Numbered from the stretch's first letter, positions 17,580-23,423 are shown. The stretch is DNA of 58,090 bases from Gammaproteobacteria bacterium (GCA_018061105.1 JAGOUU010000003.1:1-58090); one strand, 5' to 3'. Made by a program: numbers and translations. The notes: generated by a model from the letters alone, not told the origin.

Positions 17580-19124
17580 GTGTTAGGTGCTTTGATCACT
17601 CCTTTAAAGAATACTACGAAAACCTTTTATCAGGGCCTGCTTCAGGTTAAACCAAATAAAAATATTTTAGAAGTTTTTGAAAACTGCAAGTTAACAGCTA
17701 CTATTTACAATCAGATTTTACACTATAATCTTAAATTTTATTTATTACCTATTGTAATATTTTATTGGATTATCAAACCAATTTTTAGCCTTTTAAATTT
17801 TAATAAAATAAGTATTTTAGATTTATCATTGGATCTTATTTTTAAAATTTACTTACTAAAGCGCATTGCTGAGATGTTAATATATAATTTAATTTTAACA
17901 TTTGCAGCTTCTACGACGGCCGCTGCTGAAAGCCCAGATATAAAACAAGCTAAAATTTGTGATTGCTCTAAAATGGAAAAGGCCAAACAATTAGCCAAAG
18001 GTCCATTATATTATTTATCGAATCATTGTTTAGCCAAGATCATATCGTTAACTTTTAATCCACTGATTTCTTTCCCCTTTAAAACTATTACATATGGACA
18101 AGCGTTAGTTGAAGATTACTTAACTAATGCTGGATCATGTGTATTGCATAGACAAAATTGGCTGTCAAAGCATAATAAATTTGCTTTAGGTATCGGCGCT
18201 AGTTTTATCTTAAGCCATAGCTTACTGTCCAATTTAAGTATTTATTTTATCAATTTCTTAAGCGCTTATAAAATTGATTCTATTAGTAGTTTTATCATTC
18301 AAGATAGTTTTTTTAATATTATCTGGTTGTTTTTTATTTTAAACATTCATATCAATTCCACTCTGTTATTAACAACTTCTGAACAGCCATTATATATTTT
18401 TAAATTCAATCATTTAATCATCGATAAAATTTATGATTATTGGCAACCAAAAATCTCTAGATTTATTTCTTATCTTGGAAAAAACCCACCTAATCTTTTA
18501 CTTACTTCCATGATACAAACACTAACAAAAATATTTAAAATAATTTTACCTAAAAGCATTATTAATCCAGAAATTTTATTATCATCACCACCATTACAAT
18601 TATTTTTAGCGCAAAATTCTTATGATCTATTAAAAATAACAACATGGCTTCAAAAGTTAGATCAAACAAGATATTTTATTATTAGTACAGATTGGCTACG
18701 ACTTAAAAGTGCACTTAAATCTTTTTTTAGCCGCTGGATACCAAAAGCTTTGATTACTTTGTTATTTTTTGCAATTACCAAGCATTTTTTTGCAAAAATT
18801 AATCTACAATGGTTAGAAAAAAATATTAGAGACTCAAAAATAGACTCACTAAAAGACAATAATTCTACTATTGGTTTTTTTATTAAAATTATAAAAAAAA
18901 TGTTTAACATCAATTCTGATGTCAGGTGTAAAATTACTGATAGCGTTATTGTCGCGAGATTAATTGAACACCCCATGATAGAACATGGTTTTGAACTACT
19001 GCCTATGAAAGTTGCCAGAATCGCAGAAATCGCCCAAACACCCCAAGCAGCACCAGAAGAGTGGGAAATTCTCGATATAGATCTAGGCACCTCAACACGA
19101 CGAATACCTCGAGTAGTTGCCTAA
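17580..19124 (+). CDS. Hypothetical multi-pass membrane protein (weak EI24/CysZ-like segment)
   Basis: 514-aa ORF, GTG start with AGGAG RBS, several hydrophobic segments; family resemblance is a guess. Confidence 0.7.
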   Translation: MLGALITPLKNTTKTFYQGLLQVKPNKNILEVFENCKLTATIYNQILHYNLKFYLLPIVIFYWIIKPIFSLLNFNKISILDLSLDLIFKIYLLKRIAEMLIYNLILTFAASTTAAAESPDIKQAKICDCSKMEKAKQLAKGPLYYLSNHCLAKIISLTFNPLISFPFKTITYGQALVEDYLTNAGSCVLHRQNWLSKHNKFALGIGASFILSHSLLSNLSIYFINFLSAYKIDSISSFIIQDSFFNIIWLFFILNIHINSTLLLTTSEQPLYIFKFNHLIIDKIYDYWQPKISRFISYLGKNPPNLLLTSMIQTLTKIFKIILPKSIINPEILLSSPPLQLFLAQNSYDLLKITTWLQKLDQTRYFIISTDWLRLKSALKSFFSRWIPKALITLLFFAITKHFFAKINLQWLEKNIRDSKIDSLKDNNSTIGFFIKIIKKMFNINSDVRCKITDSVIVARLIEHPMIEHGFELLPMKVARIAEIAQTPQAAPEEWEILDIDLGTSTRRIPRVVA

Positions 19125-19133
19125 TATAAAATA

Positions 19134-20723
19134 TTATTGGCTTCTTCCACCTGCGCTATATAATTGCCGCAAATACTCGTATTGTGTAGGCAATATTTTA
19201 CTTAGTTTTTTTGAATCCTGAGCTATTTTTGCTAAATCAGCATTACCTTTATCCATAATATCTTTTCTATAATTTAGTAATGGTAAACTATGATTAGGTA
19301 ATAACCCTACTCCTGCAAAAATACATTGGTAACTACTGTTAGTCCAAAAGTTTTCAAATCTAGCAGCAAACGAACTATATAATTGATTATCTCCCTGATG
19401 ACTTTTACGGATTGGTAAACCAGCTTTTTGTCGATCTAGTATTAATTGTAATGACTCTGGCGTTTTTGTATCATATTTATTTCCCTTCCAAAAAGGAGTA
19501 TCTTCGCGTACTGCTGTTTTAAAATGCATAACGATAAAGTCTTTTACATCTTCTACCATGTAGGCTACTTTTTTATTAAATTTGTCACGTAAAACTGGCT
19601 CAATAATTTTATTAGGAAAATTTTTAATTAATTGGAATAAAGCCGCGTAGATAAAATATATACCTGTGGATTCTAACGGCTCTAAAAAGCCACTTGCTAG
19701 CCCAATGCTGACACAATTAGCTACCCATGATCTACGTCGTCTTCTCGACTGAAATTTAACAAATCTAGCTGTAACATTATCAGCTCTTTTGCCAAAATAT
19801 TGTCTGATTTCGCGCTCTGCTTCTTCTTCAGTCATGAATTGACTTGAATAAACATAGCCGTTACCCGATCTGTTATATAATGGAATCTGCCACATCCAAC
19901 CTGCTTTCATAGCTTGCGACGTCGTATACGGCCTGATTCCATTGATTTCTGGAGTTTCTGGAATATTTAAAGCCACAGCTCGATCAGTTAATAAGCTCTC
20001 TTCAAAAGAGACTATTGGTTCTTTAAGAATTTTTTCTATTAAGAATCCGGCAAATCCTGAGCAATCAATAAATAAATCAGCGGCATATTTTTTGCCAGTC
20101 TTACCAACAACACACTTAATATTACCCTGTTCATCAAGCTCTGCTGTTACTAAGTCGTCAATAATATGCTTAACTCCACGCTTGGTTGACCAACCTTTTA
20201 AGAAATTAGCTAATAATAATGCATCAAAATGATAAGCGTAATGCTGAACTTTTGTGCCATCCATAAGATTTGGTGATTTATTTTCATCACATGCTAAAAG
20301 GGAGCTAAAACATGCATAATCCATTGGTACTTTATAGTCTTCTTCTAAATATTTTTTAATCCAGACATGTGTCAATGGAACATCATCGTATGACGGGATC
20401 TCACCAAAGTTATGATAATAATAATCACCACCTTCTTCGATAGGTTTGCGCCAGTTCGAAAATTTCACACCCATCTTATAAGTAGCATTACAATGAGGCA
20501 TCCAATCAGATTCAGCTAGACCTAGACGGTCAAAAAATTCTGTTTTAATAGTAGGAACTGTTGCTTCACCAACACCTATTCTTCCTATTGTTTCTGATTC
20601 TATTACAGTGATATTAACATCAAAGTTAAGCGCTTGAGCAATATAAGACGCAGACATCCAACCAGCACTACCGCCGCCTATAATAATAATATCTTTAATT
20701 TTTTGATTATCTTTCATTTGCAT
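19134..20723 (-). CDS. Flavin-dependent halogenase, tryptophan halogenase (PrnA/RebH) family
   Basis: GGGSAG FAD motif, GEATVP, catalytic Lys in ATYKMG (K83), YHNFG, WMWQIP (WxWxIP), FLEPLESTG; colinear with PrnA as recalled. Confidence 0.95.
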   Translation of the reverse strand: MQMKDNQKIKDIIIIGGGSAGWMSASYIAQALNFDVNITVIESETIGRIGVGEATVPTIKTEFFDRLGLAESDWMPHCNATYKMGVKFSNWRKPIEEGGDYYYHNFGEIPSYDDVPLTHVWIKKYLEEDYKVPMDYACFSSLLACDENKSPNLMDGTKVQHYAYHFDALLLANFLKGWSTKRGVKHIIDDLVTAELDEQGNIKCVVGKTGKKYAADLFIDCSGFAGFLIEKILKEPIVSFEESLLTDRAVALNIPETPEINGIRPYTTSQAMKAGWMWQIPLYNRSGNGYVYSSQFMTEEEAEREIRQYFGKRADNVTARFVKFQSRRRRRSWVANCVSIGLASGFLEPLESTGIYFIYAALFQLIKNFPNKIIEPVLRDKFNKKVAYMVEDVKDFIVMHFKTAVREDTPFWKGNKYDTKTPESLQLILDRQKAGLPIRKSHQGDNQLYSSFAARFENFWTNSSYQCIFAGVGLLPNHSLPLLNYRKDIMDKGNADLAKIAQDSKKLSKILPTQYEYLRQLYSAGGRSQ

Positions 20724-21429
20724 CCCCCATTTTTGACATTAATTGTGCATCAGTAAAAAAATTGTTTTTACAAAAAGGCGCTAGCGCATGATGTATATTC
20801 ATAACAAAGTCATTAGATCCAAATACATAAAAATCAGAAACATTTAATAAATCTTTTTCATTTAGCTTTACTAAGTTACCATAGACTTTTTCTAAATCAT
20901 AACGACCATTAATCATTATGGGCTTATATTCTATGTCTAGTAAAATCTTGGACTGTTTGGCTTGTTCTACTAATTGGTCAAAATGTTTACCAATTATTAT
21001 TTCGTCTTCTGTGTATACGACATAAAAAATAAATACTTTGTGATTTGAATTAATATTAATTAAATAATCAATTATAGATCTAATAGGCGCTATGCCAAGG
21101 CCTTTACCTATGCCTAATAAAACATTTTTGTTTTGCCTATAGTAGGCATTACCTTGTGGCAGACTTATTTCTATATTTGACTTATTATTTCTAAAAAAAT
21201 TAATATTCTCATCATTACGCCCATGAAAAATTAATAACTGTAAATTATGTTCAAGAGGCGAAGACGCAATAGAATAAGCCAAAGCTTTGGCAGGATTTAA
21301 ATACACGTTAATATACTGACCTGCCATGAATGTAAGTCTAGCATTAGGACTTAAAGTAATCTTAGAGATAGTATTACTTGTTTGTTCTATCTTAATAACT
21401 TTACATAAAACACGAGTTTGAGGAGCCAT
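20707..21429 (-). CDS. NAD(P)H-flavin reductase, Fre/FNR-like
   Basis: FMAGQY, YSIASSP, PQGNAY, GLGIAPIRSI; overlaps halogenase start by 17 bp. Confidence 0.8.
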   Translation of the reverse strand: MAPQTRVLCKVIKIEQTSNTISKITLSPNARLTFMAGQYINVYLNPAKALAYSIASSPLEHNLQLLIFHGRNDENINFFRNNKSNIEISLPQGNAYYRQNKNVLLGIGKGLGIAPIRSIIDYLININSNHKVFIFYVVYTEDEIIIGKHFDQLVEQAKQSKILLDIEYKPIMINGRYDLEKVYGNLVKLNEKDLLNVSDFYVFGSNDFVMNIHHALAPFCKNNFFTDAQLMSKMGDANER

Positions 21430-21533
21430 AATCTAAATTAATCGATATGATTTATAATACCAGTCACATGATATCGGTTATATATAGAATAGACTTTAAC
21501 ACTATATTGAGAACAAAATATAGTCGATAAAAT

Positions 21534-23423
21534 TCATTTATCAAGAGATTCCCATTCTTGATATAATTTAACTAATTGTTTTTTGATCTCTGATAGACGA
21601 TTGGTAACTTTTATAGTAATACTGTCATCTTGTTGATAAAACCCTTCAGATAAGCTTAATTCTGTTAGTTGCTTATTCTCAAGTTCTAGTTGATCGATTT
21701 CCGCTAATAATAATTTTAATAATTTATTATTTTTATTATCAAGAGACTTTCTTTGAGTTGGCTGATTAGAATTATTTTTAGAATTATTTGAGCTATTTGA
21801 GCTATTTAATTTATTTGATTGGGTTAACCAAGTATTATAATCGCCGATATACTCGTCTATAACGCCATCCCCTTCAAAAACAATAATGCTACTTACAACA
21901 TTATTGATAAATTCTCTATCATGGCTAATTAATAAGACAGTACCATCAAAATTAACTAGTAACTCTTCAAGAAGTTCTAACGTCTCAACATCAAGATCAT
22001 TTGTTGGCTCGTCTAATACTAATAAATTAGCAGGTTTAGTAAATAGTTTAGCCAGTAATAATCTATTACGCTCACCTCCAGATAACACGGTAATAGGTGA
22101 ATTAGCTCGTTCTGGTGTAAACAGAAAATCTTGCAAATAGCCTATAATATGCTTTTCTTTGCCATTTATATTTACAGTATTGCTGCCGCCAGAGACGTTA
22201 TCACGCACAGATAATTTTTCATCTAGCTCAGCGCGAAACTGATCAAAATATGCTATAGAAAGATTCGTCCCTGTTTCAACAGTACCTGATTCTGGCGTAA
22301 GCTGCCCTAAAAGAATATTAATTAAAGTCGTTTTACCAACACCATTAGGACCAATTATTCCTATTTTATCACCTCGCATAACAACAGTAGAAAAATTTTT
22401 TATAATTTGTTTATTATTTAAACTATCTTTAAAATCATCTTTAAAACTATGGCTTATATTATCGGCAACAATAACTTGTTTACCACTTTGCTCAGTAGAT
22501 TGAATATTGGTTTTAATATTACCCTGACGACTCTGACGCTGCGCACGTAGCTCACGCATTTTCTTCAATGCTCTTACTCTGCCCTCGTTACGTGTACGGC
22601 GGGCTTTGATCCCCTGACGAATCCAAACTTCTTCTTGGGCTAATTTTTTATCGAATCTTGCATTGGCTAATTCTTCACTATGAAGAAACTCAGCTTTTTT
22701 AATTAAAAATTCTTCATAAGTACCTGGCCAATCTGCCAACACACCGCGATCTAATTCTATGATTCTTGTCGCCACGTTACGAACAAAAGCACGATCATGA
22801 CTAATAAATAAGACACTTGTTTTCCAAGATATTAATAAATTCTCCAGCCATTTTATAGCATCTATATCTAGATGGTTGGTCGGCTCATCTAATAATAATA
22901 AATCTGGCTGTTGCACTAAAGCACGTGCTAATAGTACACGACGTTTTATCCCACCTGATAATTTATTAAAATCTTGATCTATATTTAAGTCTAATTGAGA
23001 TATTATAGTTTCAATTTGATTTTGAGCACCCCAAGCATTGTGATGCTCAATTTGTTCCTGAACTTTTTGCATGTCATTTAAAGCACTAGTAGAACCATTT
23101 GAAGCTGCCTGTACTAAATTGTGGTATTTAGTCACTAGCTCACCAACTGGTCCTAATCCTAGAGCTACAATCTCAAAAATAGATTTATTTTCTGTGCCAC
23201 TTACCTCTTGCTCTAGAGTCCCTATTTTTAAGCCAGGCGAATATTCAATTTGACCAGAATCTGCTTTTTGCGTGCCGTTAATAAGCTTTAATAAAGTTGA
23301 TTTACCTGTGCCATTACGACCAATCAGAGAAATTTTTTCGTTTGAATTAATAACTAAACTTACATTGTCTAATACGGGGAACATTCCGAACTTTAGACTT
23401 ACATTCCGCAATCTTAATAACAT
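21534..23423 (-). CDS. uup: ABC-F ATPase Uup
   Basis: Two ABC cassettes, LAQEEVWIRQGIKARRTRNEGRVRAL, LDEPTNDLD. Confidence 0.95.
   Translation of the reverse strand: MLLRLRNVSLKFGMFPVLDNVSLVINSNEKISLIGRNGTGKSTLLKLINGTQKADSGQIEYSPGLKIGTLEQEVSGTENKSIFEIVALGLGPVGELVTKYHNLVQAASNGSTSALNDMQKVQEQIEHHNAWGAQNQIETIISQLDLNIDQDFNKLSGGIKRRVLLARALVQQPDLLLLDEPTNHLDIDAIKWLENLLISWKTSVLFISHDRAFVRNVATRIIELDRGVLADWPGTYEEFLIKKAEFLHSEELANARFDKKLAQEEVWIRQGIKARRTRNEGRVRALKKMRELRAQRQSRQGNIKTNIQSTEQSGKQVIVADNISHSFKDDFKDSLNNKQIIKNFSTVVMRGDKIGIIGPNGVGKTTLINILLGQLTPESGTVETGTNLSIAYFDQFRAELDEKLSVRDNVSGGSNTVNINGKEKHIIGYLQDFLFTPERANSPITVLSGGERNRLLLAKLFTKPANLLVLDEPTNDLDVETLELLEELLVNFDGTVLLISHDREFINNVVSSIIVFEGDGVIDEYIGDYNTWLTQSNKLNSSNSSNNSKNNSNQPTQRKSLDNKNNKLLKLLLAEIDQLELENKQLTELSLSEGFYQQDDSITIKVTNRLSEIKKQLVKLYQEWESLDK

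Follow-up and report, generated by a model that had tools for sequence, protein, structure and literature searches.

The closest solved relatives of the enzyme described here are four flavin-dependent tryptophan halogenases: PrnA from Pseudomonas fluorescens (PDB 2AQJ/2APG) and RebH, which are 7-halogenases, and Thal and BorH, which are 6-halogenases. Flavin-dependent halogenases are sought-after biocatalysts, and the substrate lid of these proteins has been heavily mutated to move them off tryptophan (PrnA E450K; RebH Y455/F465/N470). We analysed a halogenase of the same fold and architecture, with a lid of the same length as that of PrnA, encoded in a 58,090-nucleotide stretch of Gammaproteobacteria bacterium DNA (GCA_018061105.1 JAGOUU010000003.1:1-58090), hereafter the window. 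The lid of this window halogenase naturally lacks the clamp with which the four characterised enzymes hold the amine of tryptophan, and the same loss is seen throughout a large lineage of related proteins.

The role of the lid residues has been demonstrated in previous work. In PrnA, residues Y443, Y444, E450 and F454 hold the carboxylate and amine of tryptophan (PMC5659210). The amino group is bound by Y443/Y454, E450/E461 and the backbone of F454/F465, and the carboxylate by Y444/Y455 (in PrnA/RebH, respectively; PMC5659210, PMC8518859, PMC12247023). The same three contacts hold the amine in Thal, where the authors deemed them crucial for a defined pose (PMC12247023). RebH N470 (PrnA N459) touches the indole's six-membered ring (PMC5945002), and RebH R463 is not among the 13 residues that lie within 4 Å of tryptophan (PMC8518859). 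PrnA acts on L-tryptophan with kinetics of 0.7 µM and 1.1 per min, and the E450K mutation raised its activity on anthranilate about 8-fold and lowered the Km, an effect credited to removal of a carboxylate-carboxylate clash (PMC5659210). RebH variants mutated in the same lid lost activity on tryptophan and gained activity on indole carboxylic acids (PMC8518859).

The window halogenase is encoded by an intact open reading frame (ORF) of 529 amino acids on the minus strand (19134..20723), and matches Pfam Trp_halogenase (PF04820) along its full length (E 2e-154). PrnA is its best solved relative (565 bits), followed by RebH, Thal and BorH (505-512 bits). The protein shares 47% global identity with PrnA and about 46% with RebH-like proteins; RebH, Thal and BorH are 42-45% identical to it. 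The top PDB match by sequence is the engineered PrnA E450K mutant (4Z43), which carries an introduced basic residue where the window halogenase naturally has Arg. The GxGxxG motif (GGGSAG at 16-21; G16, G18 and G21) and the WxWxIP motif (GWMWQIP at 275-281; W276, W278 and P281) fall in columns that are invariant across 54 relatives. The catalytic residues K83 and E351, the latter in FLEPLESTG, align to PrnA K79 and E346 and are both invariant in 216/216 ingroup sequences of the tree described below. An original prediction made from the sequence alone had paired E346 with E348. The true partner is the second Glu of the FLEPLESTG motif; as the residue at this position is still Glu, the conclusion that it is conserved stands despite the numbering error. 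The remaining equivalences proposed there (K79 to K83, H101 to H104, F103 to F106, F454 to F459 and W455 to W460) agree with our alignment, and the last four pairs comprise the indole sandwich, formed in the window halogenase by H104, F106 and W460, plus F459.

An AlphaFold model of the protein, with 54 relatives as input, had a mean predicted local distance difference test score (pLDDT) of 91 and superposed on PrnA with a template modelling (TM) score of 0.95-0.97 and a root-mean-square deviation of 1.5 Å. We are confident that the window halogenase is an intact flavin-dependent halogenase of the tryptophan-halogenase family, its activity being predicted from the conserved PrnA/RebH machinery. 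NCBIfam holds no specific tryptophan-halogenase model and gave no useful call for it.

The substrate lid comprises residues 441-465 (SHQGDNQLYSSFAARFENFWTNSSY; 19329..19403, minus strand). The original prediction had located it at these residues, and they are indeed found in the ORF at 19134-20723; of its nucleotide coordinates, 19329-19406, the start is correct and the end lies one codon too far. HMMER aligned the lid with that of PrnA without gaps, at an offset of +5, and the lids of RebH and BorH, taken from their PDB sequences, fell in the same gapless register (BorH, PVTDESTYYGRFEAEFRNFWTNGSYYC; window halogenase, SHQGDNQLYSSFAARFENFWTNSSYQC). PrnA Y443 thereby maps to L448 (codon TTA, 19380..19382; the site of RebH Y454), Y444 to Y449, E450 to R455 (codon AGA, 19359..19361; RebH E461), K452 to E457, F454 to F459, W455 to W460 and N459 to S464 (codon AGT, 19332..19334; RebH N470), with all three codons read on the minus strand. 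Outside these, PrnA Y461 is replaced by Gln, and I52 and I82 by Val.

The lid is therefore full length and retains the carboxylate-binding Tyr as Y449 (PrnA Y444/RebH Y455), but the pair that clamps the α-ammonium group in PrnA, Y443 and E450, is replaced by L448 and R455. RebH, Thal and BorH all keep the Tyr-Tyr/Glu clamp (Y454, Y455 and E461), of which the window halogenase has the second Tyr only. Both substitutions had been anticipated, and are borne out by the gapless alignment and by codon reading; in the formal alignment the E450 position is occupied by R455 and not by an acidic residue. We can say with confidence that the window halogenase cannot hold tryptophan's amine as enzymes of the PrnA/RebH/Thal clade do. 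A further change put forward at the same time, N459 to Ser, is present as S464, but the role assigned to it, binding of the amino-acid moiety, is not correct. N459 contacts the six-membered indole ring, and Ser occurs naturally at this position in BorH (S470), Thal (S470) and about two thirds of PrnA-like sequences, so the substitution is uninformative on the amino-acid moiety. With these two corrections, to the numbering of the E346 partner and to the role of N459, the observation behind the original prediction is confirmed.

The pocket beneath the lid offers a further comparison. BorH differs from the 7-halogenases RebH and PrnA at four pocket residues (V52, V82, G469 and S470, vs Ile, Ile, Ser/Gly and Asn). 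The window halogenase has V56, V86, S463 and S464 at these positions and is of the 6-halogenase type at three of the four: V56, V86 and S464 match BorH V52, V82 and S470, and S464 also matches Thal S470. Without the clamp, the pose of the substrate may differ anyway.

We next consider how widely the clamp is missing, for which two sets of 118 database proteins were compared. Among the full-length proteins nearest PrnA (60-93% identical to PrnA), E450 is present in 118/118 and the Tyr-Tyr pair containing Y443 in 116/118. Among those nearest the window halogenase (48-86% identical), Y443 is present in 0/118 and E450 in 1/118, with an acidic residue at the E450 position in two (one Glu, one Asp), while Y444, F454 and W455 are retained. 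In all, the clamp is missing in 117 of the 118 nearest homologues of the window halogenase, including named Legionella, myxobacteria, Bacteroidota and cyanobacteria. A tree built from 224 sequences, with an ingroup of 216 (89 with the clamp and 127 without), resolved the clamp-keeping tips as a clade with support 1.0 and a stem length of 0.41. This clade takes in Pseudomonas and Burkholderia PrnA and RebH-like actinobacterial proteins, and the window halogenase lies outside it. The clamp is found in 89/89 tips inside the clade vs 0/127 outside. Support for monophyly of the 127 clamp-less tips is weak (0.31), and these sequences may be a grade. We are confident that the window halogenase is not a member of the PrnA/RebH/Thal clade. 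Its residue differences from PrnA are not chance drift, and the lid change is a lineage trait that is not special to this protein.

Several other positions switch together with the clamp (PrnA numbering). Position 452 goes from Arg/Lys to Asp/Glu/Gln, one of these three being present in 124/127 clamp-less sequences (E457 in the window halogenase); position 461 goes from Tyr (89/89) to mostly Gln (109/127), and position 54 from Asn/Ser to Thr. The indole sandwich (H104, F106, F459 and W460) is invariant across the lineage. Position 450 itself is occupied by Arg in the group of the window halogenase, by Gln in sister groups including Legionella oakridgensis, by Leu in another gammaproteobacterial group, and by Gly, Ala or Ser in groups where the named members are myxobacteria, Bacteroidota and cyanobacteria. 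The charge reversal from E450 to Arg, which the original prediction had emphasised, is thus present but can bear little weight, as Arg455 gives way to Gln or Leu in relatives at 63-72% identity that share the conserved gene neighbourhood. Arg455 comes with Ser464, and other residues with Asn, in 20/20 sequences. We make no claim of repeated co-evolution for this pair: a single origin remains acceptable under an approximately unbiased test (p 0.08), and only one independent contrast is well supported. Clustering at 50% identity merges PrnA, RebH, Thal and the clamp-less lineage into one cluster, and the public names of clamp-less proteins, where given, are 'tryptophan halogenase' or 'tryptophan 7-halogenase'.

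Halogenases without the binders of the tryptophan amino and carboxyl groups have been described before in the same Pfam family, namely BrvH and Xcc4156, which prefer indole and do not use tryptophan. These are far more distant from the window halogenase than PrnA is (256-272 bits vs 565), and their whole lid is a short loop that leaves an open site, in contrast to the full-length lid seen here.

The cyanobacterial clamp-less members, 48% identical to the window halogenase, have a lid of their own (Tyr-Asn, and Gly at position 450) and are found in informative gene contexts. In one locus (L087, 5091-7620), the gene directly upstream of the halogenase gene encodes a homologue of AetD of 247 amino acids (E 6e-58 against AetD structures); the pair is skt-like, without the third (monooxygenase) gene. 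Another cyanobacterial clamp-less halogenase is clustered with a glycosyltransferase, an amino-acid oxidase and VioE, a combination typical of bisindole pathways, and yet another has a P450 and a split RebC-like pair for neighbours, an arrangement also seen in the tjipanazole cluster. In Nostoc sp. XA010 (L086, 2566-13620), the halogenase gene sits between an anthranilate synthase fusion and trpC, trpA, trpB and trpD, in a locus that also carries 3-deoxy-D-arabino-heptulosonate 7-phosphate synthase and two methyltransferases, as well as a riboflavin kinase/FAD synthetase gene of its own.

These contexts match those of two canonical-type flavin halogenases, SktB (skt cluster, Nostoc punctiforme NIES-2108) and Tjp10, which are likewise associated with an AetD/SktA homologue or a bisindole cluster. 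SktB is a tryptophan 5-brominase whose product, 5-bromo-L-tryptophan, goes to SktA, a diiron oxidase and AetD homologue (PMC11869266), and Tjp10 is a proposed tryptophan 5-halogenase, thought to make 5-chlorotryptophan in tjipanazole biosynthesis (PMC7497240). By analogy of gene context, and of gene context only, SktB and Tjp10 would be members of the clamp-less group; among the matches to the cyanobacterial relative P0120, none was named for Nostoc punctiforme NIES-2108, the source of SktB. SktB is reported to work without a separate reductase, whereas the window halogenase has a paired reductase gene.

Closer relatives are found in Legionellales-like genomes. A scan of genome contigs gave eight loci of the lineage among the matches listed, the remainder being mostly actinobacterial RebH-like proteins. 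Relatives 62-73% identical to the window halogenase, with Arg, Gln or Leu lids, have no reductase gene. In six loci of such relatives (L002 5949-15508; L005 5922-17080; L004 7947-16851; L008 3441-8782; L009 6805-15721; L010 5158-11602), the halogenase is accompanied by one to three paralogous proteins of about 230-390 amino acids and by a PAS-GGDEF-EAL protein. The paralogues, of diiron type, consist of a cupin domain fused to a heme-oxygenase-like helical domain with ExxH- and DxxH-type motifs, the ExxH segment having been lost in one type, and their fold resembles UndA, a TenA homologue and Chlamydia CT610 only moderately (TM 0.6-0.74 against the target). They were considered as AetD/SktA homologues and rejected, having no PDB match by sequence and no profile match to the AetD homologue. 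A FadL-type channel is encoded in four of the six loci, and a branched-chain aminotransferase (L002, L004 and L005), an acyl-CoA ligase or a HisC-like aminotransferase (directly upstream of the halogenase in L009) is sometimes present. Taken together, these loci look like an uncharacterised small pathway linked to cyclic di-GMP (c-di-GMP). Elsewhere, two Leu-lid relatives (L011 7258-11605 and L022 8438-11611) adjoin an Fe/2-oxoglutarate enzyme with a weak match to the HalD and WelO5 families, and two nucleotidyltransferase-like genes are also present; here, one small cluster may combine halogenases of two different types.

In the window, the halogenase gene is preceded on the minus strand by a gene for a Fre/LuxG-like NAD(P)H:flavin reductase of 240 amino acids (20707..21429; Pfam NAD_binding_1), for which the best PDB match is E. 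coli Fre (1qfj, E 9e-9). Its NCBIfam scores for NAD(P)H-flavin reductase (91.5 bits) and LuxG (80.9 bits) are both under the cut-offs, and it is therefore a diverged member. The reductase stop overlaps the start of the longest halogenase ORF by 17 nucleotides (20707-20723). The public gene call starts the halogenase two codons later, at Met3 (527 amino acids); either start implies translational coupling to the reductase gene. L001 and L006, the two relatives closest to the window halogenase (86% and 83% identical), have the same pair, again beside an ABC-F gene. We are confident that the halogenase is paired with the Fre-like reductase, which we consider to be its probable supplier of reduced flavin (FADH2), and infer from the fully conserved PrnA/RebH machinery that the two would form a working two-gene halogenation unit. 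In the proposed mechanism, the reductase would make FADH2, which the halogenase would turn, with O2 and halide, into hypohalous acid; K83 and E351 would direct the hypohalous acid onto an aromatic ring stacked between H104, F106 and W460, and halogenation would be expected to fall on the benzo ring.

The surroundings of the pair differ from those of the characterised enzymes. There is no prnBCD nearby and the reductase is Fre-like, not PrnF-like; nor is the window halogenase located in a natural-product cluster, unlike RebH, Thal and BorH. The neighbouring genes are housekeeping genes (ABC-F ATPase, NAD kinase, RecN, Fur, BamE, ProRS and RadA). No biosynthetic genes were found anywhere in the 58-kb window, which also contains no cupin/heme-oxygenase-like, branched-chain aminotransferase or FadL genes and no AetD/SktA-type diiron oxidase or bisindole pathway genes. 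A horizontal-transfer island was considered and rejected on the basis of GC content (0.33-0.36 vs 0.34 for the window) and of the gene order, which is kept in relatives. Upstream of the reductase gene lies a promoter-like site (TTGATA, 16 nucleotides, TATATT; 21517..21544, minus strand), which is a consensus match only, in a region that has no more such sites than expected from shuffled sequence. On the plus strand, an ORF at 17580-19124 encodes a very hydrophobic protein of 514 amino acids (GC about 0.27) and converges on the halogenase stop, 9 nucleotides away. Neither Pfam nor NCBIfam gave a match for it, and L006, the relative with 83% identity, has nothing equivalent at this position; the ORF may encode a lineage-specific membrane or effector protein.

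What, then, does the window halogenase act on? Our preferred reading, which we put forward tentatively, is that its native substrate is an indole compound whose side chain bears a carboxylate or carbonyl and no free cationic α-amine. Candidates would be indole-3-pyruvate, -lactate, -propionate or -acetate, or N-blocked tryptophan. Such a compound is favoured because the Tyr/Glu clamp has been replaced lineage-wide while the carboxylate-binding Y449 and the full lid are kept. A guanidinium at the ammonium-acceptor site would repel an α-NH3+ placed as in PrnA, and the full-length lid, unlike the truncated lid of BrvH, suggests a substrate with a side chain. A keto acid could be provided by the aminotransferases encoded in relatives' clusters, and the shift of PrnA E450K and the RebH lid mutants to carboxylate-bearing or non-tryptophan indoles provides an engineered analogy. 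A number of observations weigh on the other side. Arg455 is not conserved, being Gln or Leu in relatives with the same neighbours, and Gly, Ala or Ser farther off; it is therefore not essential, and position 450 offers no constant ionic partner for a carboxylate across the lineage. The conserved acid E457, two positions downstream of R455, might bind the amine instead, given a different fold of the lid, and lid segment 441-460 is the lowest-confidence part of the AlphaFold model (pLDDT 55-61). This shift of the acid from position 450 to 452 is a possibility, weakened by the location of RebH R463 outside the 4 Å shell. The branched-chain aminotransferase neighbour exceeds the IlvE equivalog cut-off and may be housekeeping. 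The L. oakridgensis relative (64% identical) sits in a nonribosomal peptide synthetase (NRPS) cluster, and in such clusters free L-tryptophan is the usual halogenase substrate. Finally, the cyanobacterial gene contexts make it likely, by analogy, that free L-tryptophan can be a substrate of clamp-less enzymes, the chemistry probably being at C5; as these relatives lack the Glu, loss of E450 alone does not exclude L-tryptophan. The suggestion in the original prediction of a substrate other than tryptophan is thus partly supported: the catalytic and stacking residues are kept, both amine-binding side chains are replaced and PrnA E450K favours a carboxylate substrate, but the lid change marks a large lineage and is compatible with L-tryptophan.

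The cyanobacterial evidence leads to the alternative that the enzyme halogenates free L-tryptophan at C5 or C6 in a binding register different from that of PrnA and RebH, the lost clamp reflecting another pose; altered regioselectivity had also been raised in the original prediction. We regard this as quite possible, if somewhat doubtful. Tryptophan-based contexts (the AetD neighbour, the bisindole and tjipanazole-like clusters and the trp genes) and the C5 chemistry of SktB, proposed also for Tjp10, are in keeping with it, as are the 6-halogenase-type residues at three of the four discriminating pocket positions, the retention of the full lid with Y449, F459 and W460, the NRPS cluster of L. 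oakridgensis, the Gln and Leu that replace Arg among same-neighbour relatives, and the conserved acid at position 452. However, SktB and Tjp10 are placed in the clamp-less group by gene context, and the cyanobacterial group is as distant from the window halogenase (48%) as is PrnA (47%), with a lid that differs again. Thal and BorH are 6-halogenases that keep the clamp, so a change in regiochemistry does not require its loss, and an Arg at the amine site is hard to square with a nearby ammonium. An ordinary PrnA-like L-tryptophan 7-halogenase, in which the lid changes are neutral or compensated, appears improbable. The best match among solved structures is PrnA, no catalytic or stacking residue has been lost and E457 might replace E450, but E450 is invariant in the sampled sequences of the PrnA/RebH/Thal clade (89 tips; 118 neighbours), the clamp is missing from the lineage on the far side of a branch with support 1.0, the pocket positions that tell 7-halogenases from 6-halogenases have residues of the 6 type, and the RebH equivalent of E457 is outside the residues that surround tryptophan. 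The public name 'tryptophan 7-halogenase' would also fit this reading, although such names come from sequence sources, with no assay of a lineage member found, and the 50%-identity cluster lumps these proteins with the PrnA/RebH group. Least of all do we expect a non-indole aromatic substrate of the anthranilate or kynurenine type, or an enzyme that is no longer active. The gain of anthranilate activity in PrnA E450K (PMC5659210) and the lack of biosynthetic partners in the 58-kb window could be read in this way, but the indole sandwich is invariant across the lineage, every catalytic motif is intact, the GC content is normal for the genome, and conservation of the gene pair and its position in relatives 83-86% identical argues for selection.

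Returning to the preferred reading of an indole acid or carbonyl substrate, a broader picture can be drawn, although we think it unlikely to hold. The clamp-less lineage would be a natural halogenase family for deaminated indole acids, which in Legionellales-like bacteria would work with the cupin/heme-oxygenase-like diiron enzymes, the FadL-type outer-membrane channel and the PAS-GGDEF-EAL protein, making or sensing a small signal, a halogenated indole linked to control by c-di-GMP. The window gene would be a pared-down, reductase-plus-halogenase version of this system.

The kind of enzyme is already known; what is new here is an uncharacterised, widely distributed lid class of tryptophan-type halogenases, of moderate interest chiefly for biocatalysis and annotation. 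Clamp-less enzymes would be ready-made catalysts if they favour indole acids or act on tryptophan with a different regiochemistry. The lid signature (Leu/Ile-Tyr ... x-Phe-Asp/Glu/Gln ... Gln vs Tyr-Tyr ... Glu-Phe-Arg/Lys ... Tyr) would provide an annotation rule to separate clamp-less proteins from PrnA, RebH and Thal, with which they are merged at 50% identity. As for the organism, whose genome is Legionella-like and host-associated, a reductase-plus-halogenase pair that stands alone is a pointer to a halogenated small molecule.

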